Shown here in pieces: positions 3,354 through 41,873 of a DNA stretch of 62,431 nucleotides. Every line of letters begins with the position of its first letter. The first letter of the stretch is position 1. Source of the DNA: Psammoneis japonica (taxonomy: Eukaryota); the NCBI GenBank assembly GCA_008632985.1, contig QPGO01000148.1, positions 124,001-186,431 on the forward strand, read 5' to 3'. Below the pieces are notes generated by a model that saw only the letters and a list, made by a program, of their open reading frames with translations, did no database searches and was not told the origin of the DNA. A program made the position numbers and the translations under genes.

Positions 3354-3735
3354 GGTGAAAAGAACAGAGGGCGGTTAAGCTTCGGTCACGTTGTAACGAG
3401 TTGTATCGTTCTCTTCTTTGTTGTTGTTCCTGCTCGTTTTGTTCTGTGTTCTCTCCGCTCTCCGCTTCGTTGCCATTTTCGTGTTCCACACATTCAATCA
3501 ATCTGGCGATGTGGGTGACGTAAGTCGGATAGTGTGACGTCGATATATATTTATTTTAAGAGGCATATTATTTTCAATGATACGTGGTGAATTATGATTG
3601 GATGAATGATGTGGTCGCGTTTCATGACTACAATTCCCTCCGACATACTGTATCCGCGACCATCGCTGTTTTTGTTTTGTGCGTTGCATGTTCAATAATG
3701 TTTGACCTCCAACATTAATACCGGTAGCATCAATC

Positions 3736-5041: not shown

Positions 5042-7619
5042 AAAAGAATCGTTCATTTTCGGAAAACTGACTTGTTTTTCGTTTCTTGAAATGTTCTAGG
5101 ACGTGCCACAAAGCAACATGCAGGTCAGTCAGAAGGGTGAACAGAGAGAATCAGATGCGCTGATTACCTACAACACTCATGGTTATCCATTGCATGAGTC
5201 AGCTCGACACTGTTGTAACAATTTCCCGAGTCAAGATAGATATTTTCCCGCATGGAAAAAGTGAACAAAGCCACTGGCTCTCCAAAGACCTCCGCGGACA
5301 GAAAAAATGCATGTTGCGCGAAAGGAAGAATAATAACGGCACACACGATGGTGCCGGAAATTATCCCGCACATGGATCCATGACGACCTGCATCACCCCT
5401 GCGACGCACCGTGCCTTGCTACTCACTTTCATCCGTCTACTACACTCTCAGTTGTCTCTCGAGGAAGGCGTTTGCGTACAACTGGGAAAGGTCGTGACGT
5501 CATCCCTACGATTTCCAGATTCACATTGTCATTTCGGGAACTGTTTCGAGATCCACGAATTTAGGCGGAATAACGACCAAGATTCTCTAACCAAACACCA
5601 TGTTTGGACACGAAGAACCAGCAACAGCGACATATACTGTTGCTGCGGCACAAGACGTTACCACTTGTGTGTTGACATTGGAGGATATCGAAAGGGAAAT
5701 TGTGGGTCAATCAAGACTCTGGGTAAAATGATTGAAGAGGCACCCATAACACTGGGACGTTCCATTCAATTCGAATTGCTCAAACCAATTTGAGCTGGTG
5801 CCGGTGGACAAATGTGGCTAGTTTGTGAAAGTGACAACCCGAATGTTGGTGGATAAAAAGAACTATGCAGCTCAACGCCAGGTAATAAGGGCCAACGAGC
5901 AGGCAAAATGACATGTATGCGCTGAAGGTCCAGTACATTCGTGATATACTGCAATGCAAACAAGTAAAGAGAATGCTCGACGAAAAAGAAATGATGCAAA
6001 AGAAGGATCATCCGTTTGTCATGCGTCATCTCAATTCGTACAAGGACGAGCAGTGTCTTTCCATGCTGGTCGATCATATTTTAAGGTAGAGAGCTGTCTA
6101 GTTTTATTCATATTCTTTGCAGGAAGAAATTCTACGCTGCTAACGTCGTGTGTCTAAGTACTGCTCGGAAGATCCGGCTGTGACAAGAACCAATGTCCAC
6201 CTCGATCGGCGTGGAAGGTCTCGACGAGGCCACATTTCATATTCTTGACATGAAGAGTCGGAAGGATGTACTGGTTGTTTATGGCCACCAGAGAGTCGTA
6301 GAGCCGCTAGGACGCACCGTTGTCAGTGGTCGTCATGTCAAAGTTTCCGAGATCGTCCTTGACAAGCAGGCCTGACAAGAGTCGAACTCTCCAGAGAAGT
6401 CATGAGCGTCCGAACGGAACTTTTCTCCAAAGCGCATGGGTGCTACGGGAATGCCTACTCCGGCAACTTGATGGGGATTCTTCGCTCCACATAGGTGATT
6501 GGAAGCATCAATGTCGCTGACCACTGGGATACTACCGCTCATGAACTCGACTTGCGCCACACTCATAATATCCGCGACAGAGCTGAACAAAGATAGGGTG
6601 AGTTTTGAACCATACAGAGCCACACTATTTTAATATAATACATTTCCAAATCCGTAACCAAAAGTACTCACCGATCCTCCGTACGGGCGCATACCGACAT
6701 GACTTCAGCGACTGACATTGAGACAGACTCCAATGGGTCATAAGGAACGCTTGGATCCTTTGGGTGGTTGTGGCAAAGACCTATCAAAAATGGAGATTCG
6801 TAGAGAGTATCAAGTATCAGATACAATGGATCATTGTATTACAACAAGACTTGTGTATTCGCAACGTCATTGGAATATAAGCTGGAGTTGTTGTCGCCTT
6901 TTTTTTGATGCACGCCGTGGGGCGAGGAGGATCGGTCTTAGTGCTCTTATACGATGGAGATTTCGGTGGAGATCGTGGTGCTTGTTGTGATCCTTTTCGC
7001 AATGGTCGCTACAGACTGTATACGATCTATGTTGATTGCTACCTCTGCTGCTTTTCATTGGTTTGACTGTCGTTGTTGCCGTATCCTCCAGATCCCAGCT
7101 ACTACTACTCGTCAAAAAACTCTTGCATGACCTCCAGAGCGAAACTCACGAATTCCGATTGGAAACGTGTTGTTCAGTTGAAGAAGGTATTCAACATTAT
7201 CTAGCCAGGTGATTCTTCATCTCAGGCGGAGGATTTACCGTACCATGCTTGGTACCGTGAGACAAATAAACCAACGTATTTCGAATCGTTTGTTTCTCTC
7301 TACTAGCTAGAGAGTGTCTTAGCAAGGTACTTTAGAATTGACATTCTTCTGTTGCTCCGTCGCAGTAGGGCAGATCCTAGGTACCTACAAGTGAACACGA
7401 CGAGGCCTTGGGGTACACCGCGAAGACACAGCGACATCAAAGTACGCAACAACAACGCAAGCGCTACGACCGTCATCGCAGTCCATTGACGTACGTACGG
7501 AATAACTTACACGCACATAAAGATTGCTATGTTGCACTTTTAGTCTTTCTACTTCTCCATTGTAAAAGTTCAAGGGGTGTTTCAAACAACTGAAACACAC
7601 CAAAAGATGCGGTCGAAAT

Positions 7620-9190: not shown

Positions 9191-10740
9191 CAAGGGACAG
9201 GCTCATCCTCAAAATGACAAAAAGATGGGTGAAATGTGTCAATGTGCTTTGGGTGCAGAAAAGGCACTCCAAAACTGGATGTGAGGAGCTGCAGCAAGTG
9301 CATGTTTGCTCAGTGCTGCAGCCAAGAATGCCAGGCTGGTGTTTTCATTGATGTGCTGCCTTTTGCTTCAAAGATGAGCACAAAACAAATTAGAGTCTTG
9401 ACTTTAAAAAAAAAAAAAGGTTGTTTTGGGAGAACTGACTTTTTTTTGTTTCTCATTGACATGCTCTGAAACTTGCCACAAAGCAACATGCAAGTCAGTT
9501 GAAAGAGTCAGATGATGAGCCAGTGCCACAAAGTTGCAACAATTGTCCTTGTCAAGACAGGCTGTTTCTTGCATGATAAAAAGAGCTTGCAGCTCAAGGT
9601 TGCAAAGTGCAGCAGCTCACTGAACAAAGTCTTCTTTGCAAGATCTTTGTTGTTGTGTTGCATGTTTGGTCCCTGGCTCTGTTGATGTCTCTGCATTTTT
9701 GCAGAATTGACAGCTTGTGATCATGATGCAAGACCAGCTAAGTGCAACATTGTCAAGTCACCCCACCTCTTGTCACTTCTCATCCTGCACATCCCACTTG
9801 TCAATGTTTCCACCAGACTGCTGGAAAAGCAAAAATTTTTGAAAGAGCTTCATGTCAAGCAAACTGGTGTTTGAAAGCATGCATTGCTTGCTTGATTCTT
9901 GTCCTGCCACTTTTCTTGCAGTCAACATTGTGGCTCAATTCCACAAACTCAAAACAAGACACATGTGTTGCTTTGAACAAATTGTGCTCTCATCATCAAC
10001 CAGGTTTTGTCTCATTTCTGTTCTGCTCAAGCTTTTGTCACTTTCAATCCTTCAGCTTCATGTGCAAAAACAAGAGCAGCAACTCATTGCAGTGGTGCAT
10101 TGAACAAAGCTGCTGGCTCTCTAAAGAGCCCAGCTCTGCATGAACAAAAAATGAGTGTTGCGTGGAAGGAGGAGGAAGTGGCAACACACAGCACACATGA
10201 TGTGGTTTCAGAAATCACCCCACACATGTGAATCCAAGATGACAACCTCCTGTGTCACCCCTGGGCCACACCATTCCATCTGCACTTGCCACTTGCTTTC
10301 ATCTGTCTGCTGGGCTCTCAGTTGTCTCTCAAGGGAGGCATCTGTGCAGAGCTGGGAAAGGTCACAACTGCATCCCCTGTGACTCACATTGCCGCCATTT
10401 CAGGAACATTTTTGGGGTTCACAAATTCAGGCAGAAAGGCCAAGATTCTCAAACCGAATGCCGTGCATGTTTGGACACAAAGAACCAACAAAAGCGGTGC
10501 ATGCTGTTGCTGCAGCTCAGATGTTGCCACTTTTGTGTCTTGATTTTGAAGAATTCTGAACACCAAAAGGGACATTTTGGGTTGATTGAGATTGGGCAAA
10601 ATGATTGAAGAGGTGCCCACCAAATCAAGATTCTCCCCTCAACTTGCAATGCTCAAACCACTTGGAGCAGATGCTCAGGACAAATGTGGCCAGTTTGTGA
10701 AAATGTTGGCAAAAGAAAAAAACACTGCACAGCTTGGCAC
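9190..10740 (+). repeat. Hypermutated partial duplicate (copy B) of 4850-5900 (MYND C-terminus and downstream DNA)
   Basis: 9240-9500 aligns with 4870-5130 and 10140-10740 with 5300-5880. Many differences are TA->CA/TG and CG->CA/TG. Confidence 0.85.
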
Positions 10741-11339
10741 CAGGGAGTTGTGAACTTTTGCCATTGGAAATTGTTGCAGGTGGTCATCAGGGTGATTTTG
10801 AGTGTGCCCTTGACAACAAGCTGGTCAAGTCCATGAGTCTGGGGCTCCCCGCGGCATTTCTCTTGGGCAGCAAATTAAAACAAGATCCTGTTGTTCCAAT
10901 CTTGGCACATCCTGGGGATGTCATGACGTTGGGAGGGAAGAGCTGATTGTGTTTTCATGGAATGGCAAGGGTGACACCAGCAGATGCAGTGATCTCCAAT
11001 GTTTGCAAAAAGAGTTGCAGGCTCTTTTGAGAAATGAATGCATGAGCTCAGTGGCAAGCGATGGGTGTCAGGGTGCAAGTCCAGCAAATGGTGCGACAAA
11101 GTCGACGTGTCTGATTTCAGATTGTGACAAATGGGCTCTGTGGTGGTCTGTCTGTCCCAGCATCAAATGATGTCAACGTTCGACAGGTGTTTCCCAAATG
11201 GAGCACCTGAAAATCCACAAGACGAAAATTCTCAATTGGTTGTCATGCATCTCTCTGTGATGCTCTTCAAATGAAGAGCACACGATTTTTCCCATTCTTC
11301 ACGCTCCTTAAATCTAGCCACGCTGGTGTGCTCTTTTCT

Positions 11340-12760
11340 TCATCGAATGCGACGGCAGTCTGGACACGTCATTTCTTCATCTCTGTTCAATTTTGCTTTG
11401 CATTTCCCTTTTCCGTACATCCATGATCCACAATTAAGGTCGCAAAATGCAAAGCGTTTTGTTTCTTTGCTTTCACATTCGCAACAGTGCCACATCTTTC
11501 CGCACCAACATTTCCAATTGTCCTTAAAACACGCCAAACACATTCGCCCATTGCACGCCGAACATTTCTGCCAATGCCCAGTGTCTTCCATTGCACAAAC
11601 GTGGCAAACATACGAACTGCAGTTTCCAATGCATTTGTCGAGATTGCCTGAATCAAGGCACATTTCGCACAAGGCCCAGCCATCAGAGCACGGGCACTCA
11701 AACAGTGAGTTCACTGATGCGTCGCAATCACGGCAGAAAAAGCTTCCGCATTCCGCAGAACAATGGCAACCACAATCACGACAAGTTGCATTCTCGCACT
11801 CAAGACAGTGGTCTGTTGAGCAAGGGTCCGATGGGTCGTAACCGGGCGATGCGTGGAATTTTGAACTGCAATGCTCGCACTCCACCTCCATGCTGTCGTT
11901 GCTGGCCTTTCTGACAATTTCACCCAATTCTTTGTTTGCTTCCATTTTTTGTGCCTGTCCTTCTTTGGTGCATGATTAGCTTTCCCTGCCTGCATCTGTG
12001 GTTGTGGATGCTTCGACAGGAGCATCCTCAACGGCGTGACTCTTTTCCGCTGCTAGATTCTGTTCCTTGTTTTCTTCCACTTGCACCTGTCCTTCTTCGG
12101 CACCTGATTGGCTTTCGCTGCCTGCATCTGTAGTTTTTGATGCTTCAACAGGAACGTCCTCAACGGCGCGACTCTTTTCCGCCGCTACGATCTGTTCATC
12201 ATCACTGCTGTCATCCAGCACGATGGGATTCTCGCGTGCAGTCCTGTTTTTCCTTTCCAAAACTTGAGCGCGAGTCTCCCGGGTGTTTCACTTGGGACAA
12301 TTGCAGGTTGTGCACTCGGAATTGTTGTTGGAGATTTCCTTGCAGTGCACACAAAAATGGAGAAAGTGAGGAGCATGGTTTCGACAAGCAATGACGTTGC
12401 AGCCCATTTCCGACATGCAAATCATTGTCTTGCATTCCGGACACTGAACGCTTCCCTCCATCATGTTTTCCTGCTTTACAAAGGACCGGATGGACATCTG
12501 GGCGTGCGTCATCCTTCGTGATGTGGTTGCAGCATCTGCAGTCGGTGACGGGGAATCTCTTGCCACCGCATTGGATGGCACAGGAAACGGCGCAGTCATT
12601 GAGGCAGAATGATTGTGGGGAGTGGAGTCATTGTGGTCCACAGATCGCGATGGGGACTTTCATTTTCCTGCAATGGAAGTCACAGAATCCGGCACAGGCT
12701 CTGAGGTGTCAGCGCTGGGCAGTGCCACTGCTTGACGACTCATTTCTCTGCAGACTGCAA
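11340..12760 (-). pseudogene. Disrupted Cys-rich protein with an IBR/RING2-like module, a tandem acidic repeat and a C-terminal CxxC-rich region
   Basis: CPECKTMICMSEMGCNVIAC...HFCVHC pattern. A TGA at 12288 (probably from CGA) interrupts a frame that continues into ERKNRTARENPIVLDD. AAEKS.AVED.PVEAS.TTDAG occurs twice. CxxC-rich ORF 11340-11945. Confidence 0.55.
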
Positions 12761-13039
12761 GCAGCGCAGCAAGAAAAGAGAAGAGCCAGCAGAGCAGGTG
12801 TCACTCAGGAGAGATGGAAGATGGGCACAACAACGTAGAAGTGCAAGCATGTTCATTCTCAATTCATCGCTCCAACAAAAAATGGCAATCGTGTGTCTGT
12901 CTTGTGTCCGTCGGTGTCACAGGGTTGTTCTTCGTGTCACCACTTTGCGGTCAAAATTCAGAATTTGCAATCGTGATGACAACAGTTGACTTTCTACTGG
13001 GCTCATTTCGTCCACTGAAAGGTGAGTCCAGCTGAATTC

Positions 13040-14380
13040 ATTCACTTTGTCAGAGCCAGGACATGCGTTGAGTGCACGTGTGTGAGAAAGTGGTCCGTTT
13101 TAAGTGGCCGAACGATGTCGAAAGAACGCGAGAGCGAGGGCATGAGCAGCAGGTGGCAGAAATGCAAGCACTGAATTTTTCGATGCAACATGGACTTGAA
13201 TGGCCTCTGGTGCATGTGTTTGCATCAGTGTTTGTTCTCTGCATGCAAGCAGGTGCAGTGCCGGTTGGTTTTGCAACCCCGTTCTTGCAGCATTCTCTCT
13301 GTGTGGAAACACAGCATGCAGAGTGCACACCAACCACTGCTTTGTGTGAGTTGTTCTGCAAAAATGTTTTCTCTCACATCTTTGATCAACGAGTTTCCAC
13401 TCGCTTGGGTCTGCATGGAACCCATGCTTGTCACACAACAGATGGCAGTTGTGCCAGTAAATTGAGAAGTCCAGCCTTCTTGTGTTGTCATGAATGAAGG
13501 TTTTCAGAGACTCAAGGATGTTGGAATTGTGGAGCCCAATGCTGACATGATGGAGATGGCCATGTTTTCTTTGGCAGCTTGCGCCAATGTCAAAAGTCAT
13601 GCAAATCTTGGAGCTGTTCAAATCAAACATTTTCAGGTGCTTGTTTGGTGGATTCAAGATGGGCAGCATCATGGTCAACAGTTGACAGCTGGTGATGCAA
13701 CTGCAAATGTTTTGGCAACAGCTGGTGAGCCAAAGCTTCTTGTTAAAAGGAAAGGGAGAGTGCTGCTGTTTTGGTTGGCAACCTGGCAAAGTTCAAGCCT
13801 GAAAATTGCAATTTGCACAAGGGTGCATTCTTGAACTTGTTGTTGCAAAAGTTGAGCACTTTGAAGGCACCGTTGTGACATGTTGTCCATGCATGCTTGC
13901 ATTGCACCAAATGACTTTGTGAGTGAGGAAAAGCACATCATGTGGTGCCAGTTGCCACTTGTTGGTCTGCTTTTGAGGAAGACAATCTCACAGGTGCACT
14001 GCATGGTCAAAGAGCATCTGTTCAATGCCCCTGCCTGGCTGGGCTCAGATTTCCCCCAGTTTCTTGATGCTGCAGAGAAAATGGCTGTGCTGCTGTTTGG
14101 TCTTGGGTCAATCATTGCAATGGTGAAGGAGAGTTGAGCAAGCACACCGCTTTCTCCAAAAGTGCCATCAAAATGGTTCGTCACAAGCACAAAAGGGTGT
14201 GTCAATTCAAGAGACTTGCCAACAGGCTCACAAAGGCATTCATTGCCCTTGACAAGGATCCTGACTTGAGACACTTGGAACATCAGAAGGCCAACATGCT
14301 TTTGCACTGCAGCACTCAAACAACTGCTGATTCTGAGTTGGTGGAGTCCAGTTGTTTTCGACAACACATGCTGAGTTTTG
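13040..14380 (+). mobile_element. Degenerate CoDi-type copia relic (LTR end, PBS-like site, gag N-terminus), related to the 16.3-23.2 kb element
   Basis: attcattcac-tttgtcagagcc at ~13036-13057 mirrors the LTR-end/PBS junction at 16477-16498. ORF 13490-13834 (EGF..LKDV...LGAVQIKHFQVLVWWIQD) aligns with gag EGFTTLENI...LGTVQIKNLQAPVWWCQD. Confidence 0.75.
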
Positions 14381-15085
14381 ATTGGATGTGAACAATGTGG
14401 TTGCACTTCATGACTGAAGCTCCGTTCAACACATCCATGACCCATCTTGCTGCTTTTGTTTTGCATTGTGCATGTTCAACAATGTTTGGCAGTTCTGTTC
14501 AATGCATCCACGACCAATCGCTGCTTTTGTTTTGCATTGCACACTCAACAATGTTTGACTTCCATCACCATGGCTGACACCAACAGCAGCAACCATGTTT
14601 GTGACAAACAGATGGAGGTCAAGGGGTGATGGATCCAATGACAGGGCAAGGACACTGCTTCTCTCTTGCCCGCAGCAAAGCATTTCAGAAAGACTTGATT
14701 GTTGCTGTGGGGAGGAGATCACCTCACATGTGAGAGAACATTTGGAGCCCTTTTCCTGAAGTCACCAAGGACTGGCTTTCATGGAGATTGATGACCTTTG
14801 GCCTGATTGACACCTCAAGATGAAAATTGGCCATGGCTGGAAAGTTGCTTGCATGAAAAGTTGGACAGAGCACACCTCTGGGCCCTTTTGCCCTGAAACG
14901 TTTTGCTGTCTTACAGTCAAAGTTGACAAGAGAGACAACGGCAAACTTGTGCATGGAGATCAAGCCAAGATTGATGTTTTGTTGCATTCTGCAACAGAGC
15001 ACAATGGCAATTTTGGTGCTGTCAAGAAGTTTGATGAGGCATCAGGGCACCACAAGGCATGCCACCGGGTGTGCAATCATGAAAA

Positions 15086-15140
<55 letters not shown>

Positions 15141-16300
15141 TTCAGATTTCATGCAAACCCAAGAATCCAGTGTTGGTGGCCAGGAAACAAGAGCTGGAGG
15201 TCACAAAGTGTGACATTGATGAAAGTGGCATGCACCAGGGAAACCCTTTTGAAGGAATGCAGGACAACATTCCCTTTGTGTGGCTGGATCCACCTGTGGC
15301 CCCAGCTGCCACCCCATGCGATCATGGCGGTGTCGCTGAGAACTTTGAACTTGGAAGTGCCCACGAGAAAGCCATGGGTCACATGTTGGTCCTTTTACTT
15401 TTGGCAGTCAAAATCTGCAGAAGTTCAATTCATGGTGGAAGCGTTTGCCAATGAGAGTCTCACACTCGCCACGACAAAGGTTTTTTGCAATCATTTGTTT
15501 GCATGGTGTGTGAAGGAGCACCTGAAGGGCCAACTGGGCATTTTGCAACACACAACAATGCTTTCTTTCTCTTCTTTCTTGTGCACAATCTGCATTGTTG
15601 CTGTGTTCTGGAATCCAACAGAATTTGATGCACAGACAATGACTTGGAGGAGAAGATCTCCAAAGGTGTGGACACAGAGAACTCTGGTGAACAGAGCATG
15701 GTGTGATGAAAGTGCCGGTGCACGAAGTCTCCTGTGATTGCATTGAATCACCAAAGAAAAATTGCAAAAAGATGGGAATGCCCATGTGCTTTGGGTGCAG
15801 AAAGAACTTTCCAAAACTGGAGGTGAAGGCTGTGGCAAGTGCATGTTTGCTCAGTGCTGCGGCCGAGCATGCCAACAACGTGATTGGTGCGTTCATCGAT
15901 GTGTTGCCTTTTGCTTCAAAGACACACACAAAGCAACATGCAAGTCAGTCAGAAGTGTGAACAGAGAGAATCAGATGTGCTGATCATCTGCAATGCCAGC
16001 GATCATCCATCACATGAGCCAGCTCCACACAGATGTGACCATGTTGTGTCGTCCCGAGCCAAGACAGACAATTTCAGTCCCGAATGGAAAAAGAGAGCTT
16101 GCAGCTCAAGGTTGTAAAGTGCAGTGGCTAGTTTGAGCAAAGCCTTGTTCACAAGATCTGTGTTTTCGTGTTGCATGTTTGGTCCTTGGTGCCAACACTC
16201 TAGAGAGATGTCTCTCCGCGTTTTTGGGTTTGATGGTGCTGTTGAATTGCCGCATGTCAGCAGTGAACAAACCAAAACCATGACCCATGCCATGAAGTCA
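14380..16300 (+). pseudogene. Hypermutated duplicate (copy C) of the MYND gene and flanks (3600-5170)
   Basis: Colinear alignment, e.g. cctaatcggtacctc (3976) vs cctgattgacacctc (14802), gttaataag vs gttgacaag, ttgtacacgg vs ttgtgcatgg. Confidence 0.92.
15089..15136 (+). repeat. (AG)24 microsatellite
   Basis: Directly visible; corresponds to ggagaggcagag in the paralog at ~4258. Confidence 0.95.
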
Positions 16301-16303: not shown

Positions 16304-16485
16304 CGAGTAAATCTGGATGGAGGGCTGTGTCACAATTGGTGATTGGTTAAGACATGTGGATTGAGTGGTGCTGCAGCGACACGCTCACAATCCAACCAGG
16401 TTTAGGTTCGCATTGACAGTGTTGCTGCTTTCTATTTAGACTTAAGGCACCGTGCTTGTTCTTTCATTGCATTGAGATTTGTTTG
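16304..16485 (+). repeat. 5' LTR
   Basis: Direct repeat of 22973-23156; starts CGAGTAAATC. Confidence 0.9.
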
Positions 16486-16944
16486 CTTTGTCAGAGCCAA
16501 GACGAAAAAGACAGAGCAAAATGGTCTCGAATGCAATCGTCATGGACGATTGTTTGTTGTGTTGTTTGCATGGAACGTGCAGCTGTAGAAACGGCACTGA
16601 ACTGCACGCAATGAGTCAGAATTCGGATTGATGCGCACGATGATGCGTCTTGTGTCGCTTGTTGTGACATCCACAAAAACAGCTTGCAATGGCAATGCTC
16701 GCAAAGATGGTCACTGTCCTCACACGTGCAATGGGTGTGAAGGGACTGCGGCATTGGGCGACATGCCCGAGCGTGTGCCCAATGATGTCGGTTGACATGA
16801 ACGACACAGGACTGATCACCCTGATGTCGGGTGGCTGTGTGAACCCGTTGTCACAACACAGAGAAAGTGCAGCCATCATGACCATGCAGACTCACAGCCA
16901 CATGCTCCCGGTGCAGGACCTTTGCACCCTTTCTCTGTTGTGGG

Positions 16945-18474
16945 ATGGCAGCAGTGGCAGCACCAGCAGCAGCACTTGCGGCGTCAGCCGCGGCAGCTGA
17001 CGTTGATGCAGTTTCACAAGTTTGTGGTGTTGCTGACCAGAACGCAAGGGCGAGGTTGGTCTTCTGTGAAGGGTTCACGACTTTGGAAAACATCGCAGTG
17101 ATGGAGAGTGATCACGATGTGGAAGACATGGCGCAAAGGGCGTCTCGTCACACGGTGGCCGACGGACGTGTGACTCTTGGGACTGTTCAGATCAAGAACT
17201 TGCAGGCACCAGTGTGGTGGTGCCAGGATTTGCTCAAACGGAATCAGCCATTGGTTGCGGCAGACTTCAATGTGGCAGCTGTGGCTGCGGCCCGGAATGG
17301 CAGGCGCATCGAAAAGGAGCGCACGGATTCAGACGCGTCGGCAAGCGGTCTCGTAAAGTTCAAGCCCGATGACTTCGATGTGTGCGAAGATGCTTTCCTG
17401 AATCTCTTGGCACAGAAATTTGGCATGTTGAAAGAACCCCTTCGCCATGTCGTGAGGACAATGCCAGCTCCGGCTGCATTCACGGATGCTCAACAACAGT
17501 GCATGTGCCAGATGCCATTGAATGGCACTGCACATGACGAGGACAACCGCAGTGTTTGCCGCATGTTGAAGGAATGCTTGGTCGACACGGCAGGATGGGC
17601 ATGGATCGAACCGTTCAATGCGACAGAAGACGGACGTGGAGCATTCAACGCATGGGTTGACCATTGCAATGGACAGGGCGAGTTGAGCAAGTGCATCCAT
17701 CTGGCTGCGGCAACTGTTGAAACCTTGTTTTGCAAAAAGGAAGGATCGCTCCCGTTCGAAAAGTTCAATGAGAAACTCACCAGTGCTTTCACCACTTTGA
17801 ACAAATCACCGGACGACCACAAATCTGAACGACAGAAAGTTGACATTCTTCTAAAAGGGATCCGAACGGATGACACTCGTCTTGTTGCAGCAACGGCTGT
17901 CATTGGCAGTCAGCACCCTCGTGACTTCGCGGGGGCATGTGCTTGTTTCTCATCCGAAGTCTCTCGTTTGCATGCAGGTGCTCAGTTGGAAGCCCGGCGT
18001 CACTCGAAGTGCAAGATTTCTGAAATGAGCCGTGGTGGCGGCGGTGGCCGCGGTTTTTATCGAGGTCGTGGTCGCGGAGGAAGATTTGGATGTGGGGGTG
18101 GATGCGGACGTGGTGGTGGCCGTCAAGGCAGAGGTGGCGACCACACTGCAATGATCAATGGAGTCAATGCATCCAACCCTGCAAGGAGCTTTAGCGCTCA
18201 AGAGTGGGAAAAGTTGCAGCACAATGGGGGCATGAGCCACGTGTTCCAAGCTCGCGAACGAATGGGTCATGGACGTGGTGGTGGCCGTGGGTCTCCCGCA
18301 GGTCGACAAGGACGTGATGCAGCTGAAGCCCAAGTCCATCAAGATGGCCAAGGCCAAACCCAACAACAGGATCAGGAGCAAAGGAGTGGCGGGCGTGGTC
18401 GCGGCGCTGACCGGGATCGCGGTGGACGCAATGGATGCGCCTTCGGTCGGGGAGCCTACAATGGTTCCACCTGA
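16945..18474 (+). CDS. Copia Gag (Tyr-depleted, RGG-rich C-terminus)
   Basis: 509-aa ORF with CoDi gag features (EPLR.VVR, DGRGAFNAW..H.NG.GE, RGRG tail). Only 2 Tyr. Confidence 0.85.
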   Translation: MAAVAAPAAALAASAAAADVDAVSQVCGVADQNARARLVFCEGFTTLENIAVMESDHDVEDMAQRASRHTVADGRVTLGTVQIKNLQAPVWWCQDLLKRNQPLVAADFNVAAVAAARNGRRIEKERTDSDASASGLVKFKPDDFDVCEDAFLNLLAQKFGMLKEPLRHVVRTMPAPAAFTDAQQQCMCQMPLNGTAHDEDNRSVCRMLKECLVDTAGWAWIEPFNATEDGRGAFNAWVDHCNGQGELSKCIHLAAATVETLFCKKEGSLPFEKFNEKLTSAFTTLNKSPDDHKSERQKVDILLKGIRTDDTRLVAATAVIGSQHPRDFAGACACFSSEVSRLHAGAQLEARRHSKCKISEMSRGGGGGRGFYRGRGRGGRFGCGGGCGRGGGRQGRGGDHTAMINGVNASNPARSFSAQEWEKLQHNGGMSHVFQARERMGHGRGGGRGSPAGRQGRDAAEAQVHQDGQGQTQQQDQEQRSGGRGRGADRDRGGRNGCAFGRGAYNGST

Positions 18475-18483
18475 CTCCTTGGG

Positions 18484-21400
18484 GTGGCAACAGCTGCTGG
18501 AGCATTGGCGCATTTGGCACACTTGTCGTTTTTGCTTGTGTTGCTCTTCTTGCTGTTGACCAAACCCCACCCAACATCTCATTTCAAAGGAAAGGCGACA
18601 AAGAGGCACATTGCCGTGACATCAAAACGTGTGATCCGATCGACGAGTTCTGCACAGATGACAAATTTGATGACACCTGGGTTTGTCGCTCGAAATGAAT
18701 GTGATGCTCACGTGGACACTTGTTGTGCTGGGGCGAACTGGAAGCTCATGGAGATGACAAATGAAGTGTGCAAGGTGCGCCCATTTCTGGACTCTTATGA
18801 GCCGATCAAACAGATTCCTGTGGCACGTTGTTGCACCGCATGGACAGATCCGGAAACGACTCGTGAACATTTGCTGGTTGGTGATCAAATGCTCTGGTTT
18901 GGGACCGACATGGAACACTCACTTTTGAATCCTAACCAACTCCGTGCGTGCAACACACCCGTACACGACAACCCTTACGATGCCCGAAACGGATTTGGCA
19001 TTGAAGCTGACGAAGCTTTCATCCCTTTCAATGCCACGGGGACAATTGTGTCTTTCAAGTCTCGTGTTCCAACGGATTGGGAAGTGCAGAACTTGCCGGT
19101 CATGCTGTTGACAGGTGACGTGTGGGATCCAGCACAGACAGACATGGGCTTGCTGGAGCGCACTAGAGAGCAGGCGGAGATGCGCACTGTTCGATCATCA
19201 ACCTCTGGCATGCGACAAGAACAGGTCTTGGAATTAAGGAGCGAGAAGGCAAAGTCCCAAGCAGCACGCTGGGGCAAGGTCAAAATGCAACTGTCGTCTG
19301 CATCTCCTGTCTGTCAACTTCAATCGTTTTGCGACAGGCTTGTCAGCTCAGTGAACGTGGCTTGCACACATCGCGATGACGTGGACAAGAGGCAGAGGGC
19401 AGTCAAAGATTTGTGCAGCAAGGATCGGCACTCGAAGGTTGACGCTGAAGAGCTGGCCCGAAAATGGAGTGTCGGTTTAGAAACGGCAAAAGATGCTCTC
19501 AATGTAACAACTCAGCGTGGTGTGCAAACGGCGACCCAGCCGATGTCACGAAGAGTGAGGGTGGATCATCTTGACTTGCATCGGAAGCGTCTGAAAGGAA
19601 CATGGTTTGTGGACACTTTGATGTCCAAGGTGAAGTCTTTGCTCGGTGACACGTGTGCCAATGTTTGTGCTCAGGGCAAATTCGTGAAGGTTGTGCCGAT
19701 GACCGCCAGGTCGGAGGCAGGTTTTTCTCTTGTTGAATTCACAGACGACGTGGGAGCACCAGAATGTCTCATGTCGGATGGGGCAGGAGAGTTCACAGGA
19801 AGGAGCACCGAATTTGTGAGACACGCACGACGTATGAGAATGCAATTGAGAACATCAGAGCAGGGTCGGAAGAACCAGAACCAGGCAGCGGAGCGCGAAA
19901 TTGGTTTCTCAGCCAAACGTTGGCGGCTGCGGATGACAAAGAAGAAGGCACCAAAGCGATCATGGGATTTTGGTCTTGTTTGCGAGTCAGAATTAGTGTC
20001 GCGCATGGCAAGAGGCAGGGATGAGAGGACTGGGTGTGAAGAGGTCACTGGGCAGACACCAGAGACAGGCGAGCATTTGGATTTTGGTTTCTACGATGTG
20101 GCACGGTGGTGGGACAGGCCCAACAAGCCGAGTGCAACTGACGATCCTCGAAGGCTTGGACGGTGGCTTGGCATCTCACACAAAGTTGGCTCGGACATGT
20201 GCCATTGGATTGTTGCAGAAAGTGGGAAGATTGTCTCCAAAACATCGGTCGAGCACGTGACACAGGCTGATGTGGTGCAACCGGATGTTCGCGTTAAGGT
20301 CGACAACTTTAATGAGCAGCTGGAGAAGCGATTGGACGACACCAACTTTGTCTTAAAAGGCGATGAAGCTGTGCCCGCATTCGTGTTGGACGATCTTGCA
20401 ATCGACGGCAACCTCGGTGTGGAATGTGAGGGTGGCATCACGCCAGAGGACGAGGAACATGGCAACATGCCATCACCCGACGAGTGACCAGACGACGACG
20501 ATGAGCAGGCAATCAATCAACACCTGGGAATGGAACTTGTGTTTGACATCGGAGCCGACGGCGAGTGACGTGGTGTTGCAACGAAACGTGCAAGAGGACA
20601 GGATGGGCGTCCAATTGGGACTCGGCATCAAAACCCATTGTTTGACACTCGCGAATGCAAAGTGGAATGTGCCGACGGAACCACAGATGAGCACACAGCC
20701 AATGTCATTGCCGAGAACATGTTTGCTCAGGTCGACAGTGGGGGCAACCAGCACTCTGTCTTACACGAGACACAGGACCACAAGAGGAGTGACGATGCGG
20801 TGTTGATTGCTGACGGCACTGCACGAACCACTGACGGGAAGGAGAAGAAGAAGATCACAACAAAAGGATGGAATTTGTTGGTCGGATGGAAGGATGGCAG
20901 CTCATCTTGGGTCAAACTCAAAGATCTAAAGGACTCCAACCCCATTGAAGTTGCTGAGCATGCTGTTGCGAACAGGTTGACGGAGGAACCTGCTTTTGCT
21001 TGGTGGGTCACACATGTCCTGCGCAAACGGAACCGCATTGCATCCAAGGTCAAGAAGAAGCACTGGCGCACGACTCACAAGTTTGGGGTCCGATTGCCCA
21101 AGTCCATGGAGGACGCTTTGCGGATTGATCAGGAAACGGGGACAGATTGTTGGGCTTGTGCAATCAACAAGGAGATGGCAAAGGCAAAGGTGGCATGGCG
21201 CGAGCACGAAGCTGAAACCCCTCAAGTCGTCCGGGAAGGCAAGAGCGCAACTTTGCGTGGTCATCAGGAGATCAGGTGCCACATGGTGTTCGACATTAAA
21301 ATGGATTTCACCAGAAAGGCAAGGTTTGTAGCTGGCGGACACACGACAGAGGCCCCGGCATCGATCACTTGCTCTGGCGTGGTTTCCAGAGACAGTGTGC

Positions 21401-22800
21401 GACTTGGATTCTTGTTGGCAGCCTTGAATGGCATCGACATTACGGCGATTGATCTGGAGAATGCTTGTCTCAATGCACCATGCGCAGAAAAGACATGGTT
21501 TGAAGGTGGAAAGGAATGCGGCGAGTACGAAGGAAAGGCACTTGTTGTCACTCGGGTGTCACATGGCTCAAAGAGCTTGGGATGCTCTTGGAGGTCTGCA
21601 CTGTCATCAGTCTTTTGCATGACTTGGGCTTCGAATCGACGAGAGCGGACCCAGATGTCTGCTTGCGTGCGGCGACTCGTGAGGATGGGCATGAGTGTCA
21701 TGAAATGCTTTTGGTTTGTGTCGATGACACACTGATCATTTCCCATCAAGGGAAGTCCATTGTTGCTGCAACAGGTGAACACTGTGCCGTGAAGCCCGGC
21801 AGCAAAGGAGAACCAGAAGTTTGTCTTGGAGCCAACGTTGAGAAGGTTCAGACTCAGGATGGGTGCACAATCTGGGCGAGTTCGCCGAGGTCACATGTCA
21901 AATCGGCGATTGAGACTGTGGAAGGCCTGTTGGATGAAGACGGCAACGGAGAGGTTCTGAAGAACAGTGCAAAGGATCCACTGCCCCTGAAATGCAAACC
22001 GGAGCTGGACATGACGGACGAGCCAGGCCCCGACTTGGTGGACAGGTGTTTGCAGCTGACAGGGATTTGTCGTTGGGCCATCGAGTTGGGTCGCATCGAC
22101 ATCTTGCATGAGGTTTCAATCCCATCTCAACATCAAGCTAATCCGAGGAAAGGACATCTTGAGGCATTGCATCATGTGTTTGCGCATGTGAAGAAACACC
22201 AGAACGTCGGACGCATCAGATTTGATCCAAAGGAACCGGTGATTGATGAATCTATTTTCAATTCGAACGCAGACTGGACCGAGTTTTACGGGGACATCGA
22301 GGAGGAACCACCACCACGGGCACCGAAGCCTCGTGGTGATCCGGCAAACGTCCGCACATTTGTTGATGCTAACCATGCAGGGAATGTTGTCACTCGCAGG
22401 TCGCACAGCGGGATTCTGACATTCGTCAATGACGCGCCAGTGGTGTGGTTCAGCAAGCGGCAGAACATGGTGGAATCGGCAACGTTTGGAAGTGAATTGG
22501 TTGCGATGCGGATTTGCAAGGAATTGATTGTTGCTTTGCGTTGCAAGCTTCGCATGTTTGGGGTTCCCCCTGAAGGACCGGCAAGTGTCTTTTGTGACAA
22601 TCGCGGTGTTGCAAAGAGTGCAAGTGCACCCGAGTCGGTTTTGCACAAGAAGCACAATGCCATCAACTGCCATGTTGTGTGAGAAGCGGTCGCAGCGGGA
22701 ATTGTTCGTGTTGGCAAGGAGGACATGGAAACGAACTTGGCCGATCTACTTGCGAAGGTGGTTGCAGGAGAGCGGCGATGGAAGCTTTGCTCGTGTGTTT
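18484..22800 (+). pseudogene. Copia Pol (protease, integrase, RT, RNase H) with TGA stops and a frameshift at ~21610
   Basis: ECDAHVDTCCAG protease, integrase core (DT...SDG...AEREIG), RT KARFVAGGH and CVDD, RNase H FVDANHAG...RRSHSG, NLADLLAK. Confidence 0.92.
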
Positions 22801-22972
22801 TTTGGCAATGTCCCGACACCAAGGCCAGGCACCTGTGGCTCGCGCCCACGTATCGTGGCCTCCCAAGCCAGCACATCTGGTGGTTTAATTTGGGTTCTTG
22901 TGGTTCACCTCTCTGTGAGAGGATGTTGCATGTTCAGACGAATCGGCATTGTCATTGCCGTTTCGCGGGGAC

Positions 22973-23156
22973 CGAGTAAATCTGGATGGAGGGCTATGTT
23001 ATAATTGGTGATTGGTTTTAAGATGTGTGGATCGAGTGGTGCTGCAGCGACACGCTCACAATCTAATCAGGTTTAGGTTCGCATTGACAGTGTCACTACT
23101 TTCTATTTAGACTTAGGGTATCGTGCTTGTTCTTTCGTTGCATCGAGATTTATTCG
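22973..23156 (+). repeat. 3' LTR
   Basis: Direct repeat of the 5' LTR; ends TTTATTCG; retains more TpA than the 5' LTR. Confidence 0.9.
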
Positions 23157-27878: not shown

Positions 27879-28139
27879 GCTACTACGAAGAAGAAAGAAG
27901 GATGTCACTGTGTTGCATGGAGGGATGACAGGTATGAGGAGGCGTTGCAACGTTGCAATGTTAATGACTCTATTACCGGCACCACGTTGCGACTCTTATT
28001 TTTTTCTTTGTGTGTCTCACCCATTCATTTTGAGTCGCGAATCGATCACTTCAAAGCGAGTCCCGAATCGGACGAAAGCCTCGAAAATTAATGGGTTCTC
28101 CTCCATCGCCAGGCTGGAAGGAAACATTGCGTGGGTCAC

Positions 28140-30480
28140 GACCCGCAAATCTCAAGGAGGTTTGTGTCCACTGAGACATGCACCAGCAATCACAAGCAGA
28201 AAGGATCAATGTTGCTTGGTTGCACCAGAGAAAGGCTGAGACAAGTGCCTTGTTTTGTGACCCGCCAGATTTTCAGCCGGAAATGAAGCAGCTCAAGGCT
28301 CACAGCGTCAATTGTGGAAACACCAACTGGCAAGGACTCAATGCAATCTTGTTGAGATGAGAAGTGATTGTGTGGAGAATGGCACAACTCAATGATGATC
28401 AAGAGACGGACAGTGTTCGAAAGCATTGTGCAGCCACCAAAGGAGATGTCGTCTGCTGTGATGTGTGCTTTCTTGTGTGGCTCTGTTTCTCCAGGAGATC
28501 TTTTGCAACTTTTCTGACCTTGTCACAAGGCATCTCAACAGAAAAAAAATCCACACAGAGGTTTTTGTCTTTGAGACCAGATTTCCGTTTTTTTCCACAT
28601 TCCCGCATTTCCAGATTTCCGAGTTTCCGTTTTTCTGGATGTCCGGGTTTCCGTTTTTGTGGATTTCTGGGTTTCTGTTTTTCCACTTTTCAACGTCAGC
28701 CACACGCCCACAGCTTCTACGTGGGTTTCTATGCACCTTCTTGCACTGATGTTGCCCTTCTCAGATGGTGTTGATTTGGCTCCAACAAGCCCATTCTGCC
28801 CACGTTTGCGCCAATGGTGCATCCTCACCACAGCATGATGAGCAAAGTTCATCAGTGGAAAACGATGAGTGTCCCGGCCTTTTGGTTCGTAAGCTGGTTG
28901 TTTTTTCTTGTAATTTTCTGTTGTCTCAGAAAATTTTCTACAAAGGTTCTGGTGCAAATTCTGCGCGGATCTGCAGATGCTGCTGACGATCTGCATGTCA
29001 CTTCCCCAGCCTGCTTTTGTCCTTGCGAATTGGTTCTCAATGCTGCTTCTTTTCCTTGCCATGCAATCAAGTCCTTCACTCTTTGTGGTGCAAGCCCACT
29101 TCTGTTGCGGCCCTTTTCAGCAAGAACATTGGTTGTCCTTTGGAGTCATTTGATTGTCATTGATTTGCTGCTCCCATCGGTCTTTCTGCGCAAGATCTGG
29201 CATTGTTTCTGTGTGCTGCCTCTGACTGTCTACGTGTCACTTCTCTGGACCACTTTTGTCCTTGACAATTGGTCTTCAACCTCTCCACTTTTCTCTGCCA
29301 TGCAATCAAGTGCTTCACTCTTTGTGGTGAATCTGCTGCTTCTTTTGCGGCCCTTTTCAGCAAGAACACAAGTTGTCCTGTGGTGCCATTTGATGGTCTT
29401 TGGTTTGCTGCTCTCAGTGGCTTTTCTGTGCAAGACTCAGCATTGTTTCTACGTGTCAAGAACATTTTCTCCAACGACCTGCTTGTCTTGCCTTCAAGGC
29501 TGCCTTTGTGGACTGTTTTAAAAACCCATCTGAGTGCAATTGTCCGTTGCAGTTGTGGTGTGCCTTCTGTGGCTGTCATCAACAAGCACGCAACAAATCC
29601 CTCATGTGAATCATTCCTCCCAAGTCATCTTGGTGGGGTGTCATCTTCTGGTGACGCCCATTCCGGCTGATCCCGTGCAAGCTCCTGCCGCACTTGACTG
29701 TGTGCTGGGAGTGTGGGTCAGCCGGCGCCGGCCCAGCTGGCAAAGGAGTGACAGCACTCAAAAAACAGATCTGTTTTTTTTGGGGGCTTTCTGTTTTTTC
29801 GGATGTCTGTTTTTCAGTTTTTCTGATTTCTGTCTTTCTGTTTTTCCAGATTTCTGGGTTTCCAATTTTCCAGATTTCTGGGTTTCCACGTTTCCGGATT
29901 TGGTTTCCATTTTTCCGGATTTCCGGGTTTCCGTTTTTCTGGATTTTCTGGGTTTTCATTTTTCCGGATTTCCGGGTTTCCATTTTTCCAGATTTCCAGG
30001 TTTCTGTTTTTCCAGATTTCCAGGTTTCTGTTTTTCCGGATTTCTGGGTTTCCACATTTTTGAATTTCCGGGTTTCCGTTTTTCTGGATTTCTGGGTTTC
30101 CATTTTTCTGGATTTCCTGGTTTCCAGCCAAAGGGAGCATGGTGTTTGTCGATGCCTGGCATCAGTGCATGCACAAGCAGCAAGGAGACAAGCAAGGCCA
30201 GCCCATGCTTCATGTGGCTGCATGTTTTCATCAATGCAAAAGGAAACATCATCTGTGATGTGTGCTTTCTTGTGCAACTCTGTTTCTCCAGGAGAACTTT
30301 TGCAACTGCTCTGACCTTGTCACAAGGCATCTCAACAGAAAAAAATTCCACACAGAGGTTTTTGTCTTTGCAAGAGATGAAAGTTTGTGAGGAACAAGAT
30401 GAGGAGTTGGCAGCTTGGCTTGACAATGAAGAGGGGCAAAAGCTTTAAGATGGAAGAGAGCAAGTTCAGCAGAGTGACAC
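28140..30480. repeat. TpA-depleted composite repeat with 24-bp minisatellite arrays (~28575-28690, ~29790-30125) and internal direct repeats
   Basis: Unit consensus TTTTCCGGA-TTTCCGGG-TTTCCGT. ~130-bp direct repeat 28440-28572 / 30240-30370. ~240-bp-period duplication 29030-29460. Confidence 0.85.
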
Positions 30481-30489: not shown

Positions 30490-32620
30490 TTGCTGACAGG
30501 ATTTGAACAGGATTTGGATGCGCGCGAAGTATCGCGCGCTGTTTAGTTTACCGCGCACAGTTTTGTGTGCTTTAGTTCCGCGCGTTCGCGCGCGATGTAG
30601 TTTGCTTTCGAGCCACAAGGCTCACAAGAATAATAACAGTAGCCCGATTATACCGACTTACACGTCTTTCGGCTCCTGTAACGGTCTCTGAGCGGAGACT
30701 CATCTGCTATTTAGACAGCAGTAAGGAGTTATTGTTTGAATTCTTGCCATTTGCCTTCGATTTCTGTCAGATTAACAGTCTTGCTCATTGTCAACCCATT
30801 GAGCAACCGCCATCGTCGTCGTTGATTTACCAACGACGCTATTTCAATTCTACGTGGACCTCCGTATATATTCTACATACATCGGCAAGTCTACGCGCAT
30901 TCAATACCAGGGCATCGGCAGGAAGTTAACGTCACCGTCAAGTCTCCTTACCGCTGGATATCTGGATTGATTATACTACCTTTGATCGCTGAATACTTAT
31001 ATTCAACGGTCATATCCAAGACTGTCAGCTTGATCAACATCCCTTGATAAACCTATTCTTCGGTTAACGGTCAAGAACCCTACATATTCAAGGATCTTCG
31101 TCGCTGAAGACATATATATATATACATATCTTCACGGCCAAGAACCTGTACCCACTCTTCGGACCACGGTTTTGCTGCCACTCTACAAGCACACCGAGTC
31201 CATTGTACCTGATCTACCCCGGACTGCTGGTGCTCTACAGTTCTACTAGGTCCACGAGGACGACTGTGAGAGCAAGCAGCCGTGATTACAGCCTACGTTG
31301 GGGCGAGGGTGCTTTCCCGCGTTTGTTCGTTCGTCCACAGCGCCCAACGCCTGCGTCAACTGGCCAGCCTGATCGGGAAATCCAACCGACATAAAATGAG
31401 AACGGTTCGGGGGTCTTGTCCACCTCTGGTCAGCTCACCTGCAGGGGTTTACAACCCGCTGCTCCGCTCGTAAGCAACCCAAAGCGCCACCAGCTGCGGG
31501 TTCGGACGTGCCGGCACAACTCTACGGACCGGATGGGAAGTTTAGCACTCAACAACGAACGGGATGGCAAAGCCCGGCGACTTCTGATTTTAAGATAGTT
31601 CAAGATTTCAAGTCAAGTCCATTTCAAGTCAAGTCCATTCTCACCCAAGTTTCAAGTCTACCTTCGTTTTTCGAGTCTACCTTCGAGTCCACCTTCGCTT
31701 CCCAATCAGAATTGATTGTCCTGACACCACTTTTGTCCACCATGGTTCTCACTCGTCAGCAACAAATCGATGGTTTTGAGCACGTTGTTGGAACCGTGCT
31801 TGCCCAAGGTGCTGGGAGTCCTCTTCGTTTGGCTTTGGCCCAAGACGGCACGGACTCGCATCAGGAACTGTTCACGTTCATGCCGTCCCAAATCGACTCG
31901 CTTGAGTGCGACAACGGCACCAATGCAATCCCTTTGCCTCGTGGTTACAAGAACATGTTAGCAGCGCTAGTTGGTCTGTGCATTGTCAAAGCACACAAAG
32001 GTCTTGACGTTGCCAACGACTCCTCTTTGTTCATGCATGACGAGTTCCTTGCCTGCCGCCTCAGCCCGGACTGCATGTCCTCTGTGTCCATCGGCAGCTC
32101 ACCCCTTGCACCTCCACATGTCACCAACCCGACCAAGGCACGCGACCCGGTGCGAGACTTCAAGCGAGGCATCAAGCGTGATCCCACCGCTTTCACGGCT
32201 CTCAAATCCGACAAGCAGTGGCACACTTGGCACACCTCACTTGTGGCACAAGCCCGTGCCCAAGACGTCGAGTGCATTCTAGACTCGTCGTACAAACCGA
32301 CCAGCCCCGAAGACAAACTGCTCTTTGCTGAACAGCAAAAGTGCATGTTCGCCGTCTTCGAACGCATCCTTCTAACCGACAAGGGCAAGGCTCTCATTCG
32401 CGAAAATGTGGGGTCTTCTGACGCACAGACCGTCTGCCGCTCCTTGTCTGAGCACGCGCTTGCCTCCACCCGCGCATCTGTCGAGTCCTCCACCCTGCTC
32501 ACGCACCTCACCACCGCACGTCTTGGTGATGGCACTTGGAAAGGTCCAACCCACGGGTTCATCCTTCATTGGCAAGATCAGTTGCGCAAGTGCGAGGCAC
32601 TCATCCCCGCCAGTGACCAC
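30490..32620 (+). mobile_element. 5' fragment of a second-lineage CoDi copia: putative LTR/leader plus truncated gag (ATG 31742)
   Basis: Gag motifs DFKRGIKRDPTAF.LK.DKQW, AQARAQDV..ILD, LLTDKGKALIR, WKG..HGFILHWQDQLR typical of diatom copia. The LTR/leader assignment and left boundary are inferred. Confidence 0.75.
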
Positions 32621-41655: not shown

Positions 41656-41873
41656 GTACCTATCAACGGCTACCACAACCAACTCACTGAGGTCTATCAG
41701 GTTCTCGACACAGACAAGGTCTCGACTTACCTGCTGATAGACGACACCCGGTTCGGTTCGTAGAGGGAATTGATGATAAGAAGCAAGAGTGCTGTTCACG
41801 CCACCATGCACGATGTCGCCAGAAAAGTCGTGTAATTGAGATGGATGCAAATGCCTTAGACTCAGAAGTTGCA

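Follow-up and report, generated by a model that had tools for sequence, protein, structure and literature searches.

The TpA-poor retroelement and its surroundings

The DNA analysed here, called the window below, is a stretch of 62,431 nucleotides from the diatom Psammoneis japonica (contig QPGO01000148.1, positions 124,001 to 186,431 of the forward strand). It carries a full-length Ty1/copia-type retroelement that has lost most of its TpA dinucleotides and kept most of its CpG. An earlier note on this DNA had proposed that in such repeats TpA is lost before CpG, the two losses running as separable clocks. We followed this up with copies retrieved from the assembly (91.4 Mb searched), expressing TpA and CpG in each block as observed/expected ratios (o/e). 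The same assembly gives 24 matches to silicon transporters, as befits a diatom. The features on which the argument depends are listed here (LTR, long terminal repeat; ORF, open reading frame).

16304..23156, + strand: full-length Ty1/copia-type element of family 1, recognised by its LTR pair, 4-bp target duplication and reverse transcriptase homologues
16304..16486, + strand: 5' LTR of this element, within the TpA-poor block (kept TpA 6/16, CpG 4/8)
22973..23156, + strand: 3' LTR, adjoining a host gene and mostly spared both losses (kept TpA 13/16, CpG 8/8)
30494..32627, + strand: 5' part of an element of a second copia family (family 2), truncated at 32627, with a 276-bp LTR, a leader and the start of a long ORF
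32628..33400, - strand: host ORF present in single copy and joined to the truncated element; comparison with contig C207 shows cis conversion of its TpA over ~770 bp
3568..5833, + strand: host gene region with normal TpA, by self-alignment the source of two decayed local copies
14352..16189, + strand: older decayed host-gene copy, both dinucleotides depleted
9211..10705, + strand: oldest of the decayed host-region copies, in two aligned pieces, both dinucleotides depleted
36900..40800, - strand: old copia relic with an RVT_2 remnant, TpA and CpG depleted (o/e 0.06/0.34)

Both elements belong to the Ty1/copia type by their LTRs, target duplications and RVT_2. The window copy of family 1 has LTRs of ~183 bp each and a reverse transcriptase (RT) that scores under the Pfam cut-off; full copies of family 2 are ~7.1 kb long, and it is the siblings of the window piece that carry RVT_2.

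The contrast between the two dinucleotides is strongest in the copia body at 16945-22900, which holds 32 TpA (o/e 0.099) and 350 CpG (0.85), and in the gag stretch at 31.7-32.6 kb with 6 TpA (0.136) and 60 CpG (0.88), much as the earlier note had described. In three host blocks the ratios are 0.55-0.65 for TpA and 0.93-1.03 for CpG; by simple arithmetic, the copia would have ~190 TpA at the host level of ~0.6. The repeat blocks as a whole range from 0.02 to 0.14 for TpA and from 0.18 up to 0.88 for CpG, and those singled out earlier as having lost both are indeed low in both (0.046 and 0.183 at 7.6-11.3 kb, 0.024 and 0.25 at 13-16 kb, 0.058 and 0.335 at 37-40.8 kb). Two identifications had to be amended. 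Of these relics, all taken at first for transposable elements, the one at 37-40.8 kb is a copia, but 14.35-16.2 kb and, in part, 9.2-10.7 kb are decayed copies of a host gene; and the gag stretch, TpA-poor and CpG-rich as stated, belongs to the 5' 2.1 kb (30494-32627) of the second copia family, whose LTR and leader are spared in the window while its ORF is TpA-poor and CpG-rich. Stops of the CGA-to-TGA type are few in the full-length copia, as had been noted: there are four in-frame TGA codons, three of them at CpG-type sites and one common to all 14 copies analysed, and a frame change near 21.5-21.7 kb.

The order of the two losses

For family 1, 20 regions were fetched and 15 mapped full length; the statistics are based on 13 of these and the window, leaving out L044 and L048, which represent another sub-lineage, and five partial or rearranged regions. 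For family 2, 17 of the 20 fetched copies were used and three rearranged ones dropped. Sites were classed by column tallies, so that columns with only CA/TG count as TpA-type and may hold a few former CpG. The window copia, for which 4602 columns show 2 private transversions, retains 29 of 270 TpA-type sites and 341 of 416 of the CpG type. Per copy, family 1 keeps 20-50 of 262-272 TpA-type sites (7-19%) and 307-372 of 403-418 CpG-type sites (75-90%), at 1-13 private transversions in ~4600 columns; for family 2 the figures are 36-84 of 139-142 (25-59%), 383-401 of 405-409 (94-98%) and 0-10 transversions in ~4200 columns. Taken together, TpA survival is 7-59% and CpG survival 75-98%, and none of the 31 copies of the two families has lost CpG ahead of TpA. 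Pairwise, 16 young RT segments of family 1 differ by 3.4-8.8% transitions and 0.0-0.4% transversions, and TpA loss is near saturation in all 30 of the family 1-related RT segments examined. No unmutated master copy was found among the best 40 of 117 candidates for family 1 or the best 40 of 440 for family 2.

A plot of both ratios against transversion divergence for each copy, as suggested in the earlier note, is weak within families. Over the 14 star-like copies of family 1, CpG loss correlates with transversions at 0.59 and TpA loss at 0.64; the family 2 values are 0.36 and 0.22, not significant. A rho of -0.88 between CpG retention and transversions over 20 copies was discarded, as five of the copies came from other sub-lineages. 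The order is therefore carried by the comparisons of duplicates and flanking DNA.

The sister copies L011 and L017, which separated from a late common ancestor, carry the same conversion at 68 TpA-type sites, opposite ones at 3 and a one-sided change at 5, and at CpG-type sites 30 changes are one-sided, 6 the same and 1 opposite; five independent copy pairs have 33-62 same and 26-41 opposite conversions at TpA-type sites. The pair L016/L020 behaves similarly but less cleanly (62:8 at TpA-type sites; 34 one-sided and 15 same at CpG-type sites). A 1.7-kb tandem duplicate in L132 shows 24 CG-type against 6 TA-type differences. A further direct comparison is provided by the host DNA right of 32627, which is also present, without the transposon junction, in contig C207. 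This contig, used as the unconverted reference, is the other allele or a duplicate, and the polarity of the flank changes is the same either way. Over 32628-33400, a stretch with only two matches in the assembly (the window and C207), 22 of 28 TpA have been converted and 1 of 47 CpG lost, the direction of this single loss being uncertain and one more site differing in the reverse direction; over 33400-37080 the counts are 0 of 154 and 0 of 192. The lack of any substitution between the window and C207 over 37080-47068 was dropped as a clock, since recent homogenisation could explain it.

In the older DNA, CpG loss catches up. The host-gene copy at 14503-15931 keeps 2 of 56 TpA and 13 of 60 CpG at 3.9% transversions, and the two pieces at 9211..10705 keep 0 of 13 and 0 of 14 TpA, and 0 of 9 and 2 of 31 CpG, at 6.8-6.9%; the relic at 37-40.8 kb is 2.5-3.4% transversions away from its nearest non-identical relatives. 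The CpG-poor blocks are thus the older ones by transversion divergence, as supposed. Three LTR pairs at 0, 1.1 and 4.9% transversions (123-179 columns) enclose DNA with CpG o/e of 0.80, 0.38 and 0.21. Between the host gene and its 14-16 kb copy, 67 TA have become 34 CA, 26 TG, 2 CG and 3 others, with 2 still TA, and 69 CG have become 22 CA, 20 TG and 12 others, with 15 still CG; the loss of TpA is a real substitution process from TA to CA or TG. A compositional covariation of TpA with CpG was reportedly described by Duret and Galtier in 2000. Host DNA stripped in silico of all its CpG still has a TpA o/e of 0.45-0.53, which excludes such covariation as the source of the depletion. We are highly confident that TpA is lost first and independently of CpG decay.

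The two processes and their known counterparts

The fast changes are almost exclusively A:T to G:C transitions at TpA, occurring on both strands. In self-complementary contexts CA and TG products are nearly balanced (336:323 and 159:169), indicating near strand symmetry, and T-A-pyrimidine is converted 3-4 times faster than T-A-purine in both families. The reverse step from CA/TG to TA is seen at 11 of 13061 site-copies in the family 1 series, and at one-step sites new TpA arose at 0 of 576 in the 14-16 kb copy and 3 of 370 in the 9.2-10.7 kb copy. The 11 LTR pairs of family 1 differ by 84 TA-type changes (29 CA/TG differences included), 32 of CG type and 1 transversion, and the 17 pairs of family 2 by 140, 22 and 5, respectively; one target duplication (L046) reads TCAT on one side and TTGT on the other, with changes in opposite directions. 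TpA is therefore lost from chromosomal DNA after insertion. As family 1 pairs show 129 transitions to 1 transversion altogether, LTR identity overstates ages here.

The loss is restricted to foreign or repeat-like regions and needs no second copy: genes are spared, the single-copy flank is converted and the source gene of the local copies is intact, so the process is not bound to homology. We consider it likely that targeting follows the chromatin domain instead. Four gene-adjacent LTRs, chosen by position and TpA state (the window 3' LTR and three from elsewhere), have kept 58 of 64 TpA and 32 of 32 CpG, compared with 99 of 374 and 149 of 187 in the other 24 LTRs (p=0.002 for the CpG contrast). 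The 5' LTR and leader of family 2 (window 30494-31300, TpA o/e 1.02) keep TpA in most copies, even within flanks stripped of both dinucleotides, conversion being frequent in the corresponding 3' LTR; in a few copies the pattern is reversed or both are lost. This suggests a protected promoter.

A simulation run with family 1 rates reproduces the observed CpG path, giving 0.74, 0.40, 0.26 and 0.14-0.17 at 0.12, 0.6, 1.2 and 2.4-4.8% transversions. After a one-off burst simulated TpA rebounds to 0.10-0.36, as against 0.02-0.07 in the relics; TpA removal is continuing in old relics. A TpA hazard of 1.0-2.4 at 0.066% transversions would imply, by simple arithmetic, a rate at least 1500-fold that of transversions, with doses differing between copies. 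Contigs of one sample, from public runs X1 and X2, which may be mosaics and may be the source of the assembly, cover part of the converted flank. In X1 the interval 32681-32807 is represented by two variants of 127 bases. One is nearly unconverted; the other is converted and agrees with the window at some sites, is changed in the opposite direction at both 32728 and 32748, and has escaped conversion at 32795. A further X1 conversion, at 32924, is absent from the window, and X2 has the unconverted form with the C207 junction. The X1 contigs thus differ from the window at four TA sites of the flank, which argues for conversion after the lineages split and against an artefact. Among the X1 and X2 pieces listed, none bridges the window junction at 32627.

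How separable the two clocks are, as the earlier note had called them, depends on the scale. Pooled hazards are ~1.0 for TpA and 0.038 for CpG in family 2, and ~2.1 and 0.19 in family 1, and look non-proportional between families. When variation of rates among sites is modelled, the ratio of mean hazards comes to 66 for family 1 and 77 for family 2, and projecting family 2 to a 5.1-fold dose gives a TpA retention of 0.155 against 0.122 seen in family 1; the clocks are thus proportional between families at ~70:1, and the order follows from the rate. Copy by copy, a shared dose is rejected in both families (p=2e-5 and 2e-4), and TpA and CpG doses correlate at ~0.45, not significantly (p=0.11 and 0.07). 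The TpA residuals of family 2 are autocorrelated over 0.05-1 kb (0.057 falling to 0.014, with no significance figure) and those of CpG reach at most 0.007. Scaling of the two losses, named at the outset as the result that would speak against separate clocks, is accordingly partly borne out, between families more than copy by copy; separateness holds for chemistry and copy-level dose, and fails for territory, with spared LTRs in common, and for long-run scaling. The clocks are chemically different but not independent.

The slow process converts CpG to TpG/CpA at ~20-40 times the rate of C-to-T changes outside CpG (simple arithmetic), gradually with age and without clustering, and runs on to 1-2% transversions. 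Copia elements of the diatom Phaeodactylum carry DNMT5-dependent CG methylation, according to PMC9998398, and the CpG decay known for methylated transposons shares with our slow clock its products, its gradual, unclustered course and its tracking of age, but is unable to yield the TpA loss. Spontaneous deamination of 5-methylcytosine is, by analogy, the probable cause. The assembly has 27 DNA_methylase matches, counted without assignment to classes; DNMT5 was not identified, the two weak DNMT loci examined having no SNF2 domain in the frames scanned. Cytosine methyltransferase domains also occur at L147, L148 and L149 (contigs C301 and C297 of genome G000) in TpA-stripped, CpG-retaining DNA, some with stops, and may represent duplicated or mobile methyltransferase genes undergoing the same process. 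L143, L144 and L150 (C10, C59 and C34 of G000) are intact cytosine methyltransferases in TpA-normal DNA, one of them with a weak chromodomain match in an upstream frame.

The closest counterpart of the fast process is found in the rhizarian alga Bigelowiella natans. As given in the main text of a preprint by Mettrop et al. (bioRxiv 10.64898/2026.01.13.699255), TpA-only A:T to G:C changes arise there de novo in mutation-accumulation lines, mainly in two viral insertions, at ~6e-7 per site per generation, ~1000-fold over background and in some lines only; reverse-transcriptase and transposase sequences are TpA-depleted, and an ADAT2-type deaminase is put forward as a hypothesis. Both cases share the conversion of TpA to TpG/CpA on both strands in silent foreign or repeat-like regions without need of a second copy, but depletion is mild there (Rho 0.45 in a large region) and near saturation here. 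The order and rate relative to CpG, the T-A-pyrimidine preference, the spread in cis into a single-copy gene and the spared LTRs go beyond that main text, in which the words CpG, diatom, LTR or trinucleotide do not occur, mutation contexts being listed in its supplements. Our literature search, which lay outside most subscription journals, found that one report of the TpA process, in an unrelated alga, and none for diatoms.

Repeat-induced point mutation (RIP) of ascomycetes operates during the sexual cycle, depends on a methyltransferase of RID type and leaks into neighbouring unique DNA. In the sections of PMC2621366 and PMC7882544 that we drew on, it shares with the fast process dinucleotide-specific transitions confined to repeats and a very high transition/transversion ratio, but its polarity is C:G to T:A, mostly at CpA, with gain of TpA, whereas here A:T becomes G:C and TpA is lost. 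RIP also mutates both copies by homology, while here the source gene is spared, as are LTRs next to genes, and conversion reaches single-copy DNA; selection on the source gene is a possible alternative for its sparing. RIP was rejected on polarity and homology.

The coding consequences are peculiar. Since conversion of TA to CA/TG introduces no stop codon and eliminates TAA and TAG, long frames are left on both strands. Tyr accounts for 1 of 392 residues against a median of 4.0% in 120 homologues, the starting Tyr of the RT catalytic motif is kept in 2 of 30 copies, and the host ORF at 32628-33400 has the same kind of changes as the element. Among the 120 homologues a single protein, P0017, has almost no Tyr (0.3%), possibly from the same process. 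Outside the genome we compared 89 related RT loci, namely the best 80 of 430 metagenome matches and 9 from binned genomes. Three of them, ~70% identical to the own-genome copies compared, have TpA of 0.12-0.20, CpG of 0.77-1.0 and almost no Tyr, a count that is a lower bound, as the search favours intact frames; the other 86 have normal TpA, among them five with CpG of 0.42-0.60 and TpA of 0.69-0.76. The TpA-first state therefore extends beyond this assembly and does not characterise the element family as such. No relative was found in the viral contig set.

Mechanism, rival explanations and further observations

The explanation that we favour, and judge from the substitution patterns to be probable, is a chromatin-targeted A-to-G editor of DNA acting beside ordinary decay of 5-methylcytosine. 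Two chemically different mutation processes would begin once DNA enters a silenced repeat domain, with their rates setting the order. The fast one, as the data show, replaces the A:T pair of TpA by G:C in either strand, with TG or CA as products, in chromosomal DNA after insertion, including non-transposon and single-copy DNA of the domain; it spreads some hundreds of bases in cis and spares gene-adjacent LTRs and many 5' LTR/leader regions. Its rate exceeds that of the slow one by a factor of ~25-35 when sites are pooled and of ~70 by mean site rate, and it is saturated by ~0.1% transversions. The slow one turns CpG into TpG/CpA, probably through 5-methylcytosine deamination. An adenine deaminase of TadA/ADAT type, recruited to heterochromatin and leaving inosine to be copied as G, is a candidate agent to which we give a little less than even chances. 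The role may be genome defence, with elements disabled by missense changes and not by stops.

Its main rival is a modified base at TpA, N6-methyladenine or 5-hydroxymethyluracil/5-formyluracil, which is miscoding or is deaminated in parallel to 5-methylcytosine. Since TpA is self-complementary, sequence alone cannot show whether A or T is attacked, and two co-deposited marks are expected to be co-targeted and to keep a constant ratio to CpG loss; yet 25-70 times the CpG decay and at least 1500 times the transversion rate is high for spontaneous decay, and neither the patchy TpA loss in family 2 nor the on/off behaviour between Bigelowiella lines, as the preprint's main text has it, is readily accommodated, so that we hold this rival unlikely. 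One mutator acting in two YpR contexts, TA fast and CG slow, both yielding CA/TG on one clock at two rates, would account for the ratios of 66 and 77 in families of different age, for the family 2 projection and for the shared spared zones. The chemistries are opposite, however (A to G and C to T), the shared dose is rejected, clustering differs, the five environmental relatives with lowered CpG have kept TpA, and the main text on Bigelowiella gives 6.85e-7 for AT to GC and 3.9e-9 for GC to AT in hypermutable regions; we regard it as improbable.

Patch repair by polymerases of the eta/iota kind is error-prone, and T-A is an error context of Y-family polymerases. TpA loss could on these grounds be a by-product of CpG events, through composition or through error-prone patch repair at deaminated or excised 5-methylcytosine, and both losses do co-localise, with a local association in family 2 at p=0.052. 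The compositional null fails, which largely refutes that version; TpA retention has no trend with distance to CpG, and the ~30-60-fold excess of transitions over transversions in young copies is unexpected of Y-family polymerases, leaving very little room for a by-product. Editing of element RNA or cDNA during retrotransposition might be suspected, the clearest cases being LTR elements and ADAR-type enzymes being described as favouring a 5' U. It would predict strand bias, confinement to elements and LTRs identical at insertion, as in APOBEC- or ADAR-like systems, and none of these was found: changes are nearly strand-symmetric, differences between the paired LTRs of a copy run in both directions, and conversion has reached a target duplication, local copies of a gene and a single-copy flank. 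These host-DNA cases refute it as the main cause, and its chances are negligible. An artefact of base calling or assembly from modified bases in long reads is hardly more credible: the assembly has single-base indels of the long-read kind and no library type is recorded for the public runs, but the direction at one site varies among copies and is yet inherited by sister copies, X1 contigs carry converted states, some of them opposite to the assembly, and three environmental contigs are in the same state.

Several observations weigh against the chromatin-targeted editor or weaken its support. The candidate deaminase genes resemble the ordinary tRNA/nucleotide set: TadA/ADAT-type genes are present, as expected in any eukaryote, the search gave five MafB19-deaminase matches and two A_deamin loci, none singled out as a mutator, and no deaminase expansion or fusion to a chromatin reader was seen in the frames scanned. 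TadA-derived editors prefer YA, in contrast to the low A-to-G rate in CpA here (106 of 13061 site-copies in the family 1 series), and small strand effects of opposite direction remain (0.87 and 1.16). Continuous simulation brings TpA down to 0.003-0.008, below the 0.02-0.07 of the relics. The constant hazard ratio and the shared spared zones would equally fit one process in two contexts; the mean rate of family 1 is poorly bounded, 184 of 272 sites having no survivor; TpA patchiness appears in family 2 alone, without a significance figure, and can inflate the likelihood-ratio test of its shared dose. TpA conversion, though unlinked in family 1 to any CpG lost within 30 bp (p=0.66), is borderline higher near lost CpG in family 2. 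Transversions are few in young copies, and errors of reverse transcription or assembly may be among them.

With these reservations, the findings add to the TpA hypermutation of two viral insertions in a single rhizarian a saturating process that acts against transposons genome-wide in a diatom, and so in a group in which knockouts have been done (PMC9998398). They place the process in time against CpG decay, offer two dating ranges, TpA for insertions below ~0.1% transversions and CpG for ~0.1-1.5%, and mark spread into neighbouring genes as a source of host mutation. It is a tentative but tenable generalisation that diatoms, and perhaps a wider part of the SAR group, may have a chromatin-guided A-to-G DNA editing defence that strips TpA before methylated CpG decays, reaches single-copy genes by spreading in cis, inactivates retroelements by loss of Tyr and is fast enough to show between subcultures, which would imply a natural chromosomal adenine deaminase with a T-A-pyrimidine preference. 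If an editor is responsible, it would be a natural A-to-G enzyme for genomic DNA; for an amphioxus ADAT2, DNA deamination is reported (PMC10354150).

Two of six weak DNMT/deaminase regions were examined. One open frame, L140:319-1791 on the minus strand, combines two domains, a deaminase of MafB19/dCMP type and a 2OG-Fe(II) dioxygenase. A search for Tet_JBP gave no match, its control being likewise empty.

The LTR ends of family 1 (window 16304-16312 and 23148-23156) are CG and not TG...CA, with 4-bp target duplications, and family 2 has TG...CA ends with 5-bp duplications. Both families resemble the CoDi Ty1/copia elements of diatoms as LTR elements with RVT_2, and some CoDi families also lack TG/CA ends, as far as the excerpted account in PMC2806351 goes.

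Two further blocks of the window are depleted.

11300..13000, no strand assigned: TpA-poor, CpG-rich block inside older DNA (o/e TpA 0.13, CpG 0.79)
27900..30450, no strand assigned: repeat block in an intermediate state (TpA 0.07, CpG 0.55 over 28-30 kb)

The first is additional to those of the earlier note and had no match among the loci compared. Within the second, 28456-30370 consists of arrays of 8-bp units with 118-bp direct repeats at the ends, part of which has a second copy at 96.6% in L091. The host gene region (query 3650-5250) has no copy outside the window, and its end at 4860-5020 encodes a cysteine-rich motif that we take to be MYND-like. At the 32627/32628 junction the DNA on the left is not present in C207:14.5-50 kb, pointing to a rearrangement or a misjoin, and at 34050-34314 the window differs from C207 by 15 clustered substitutions, many of them transversions, and small indels, in near-identical surroundings. 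A 147-bp tandem repeat with normal TpA at 60479-61269 adjoins a gap of 461 N.

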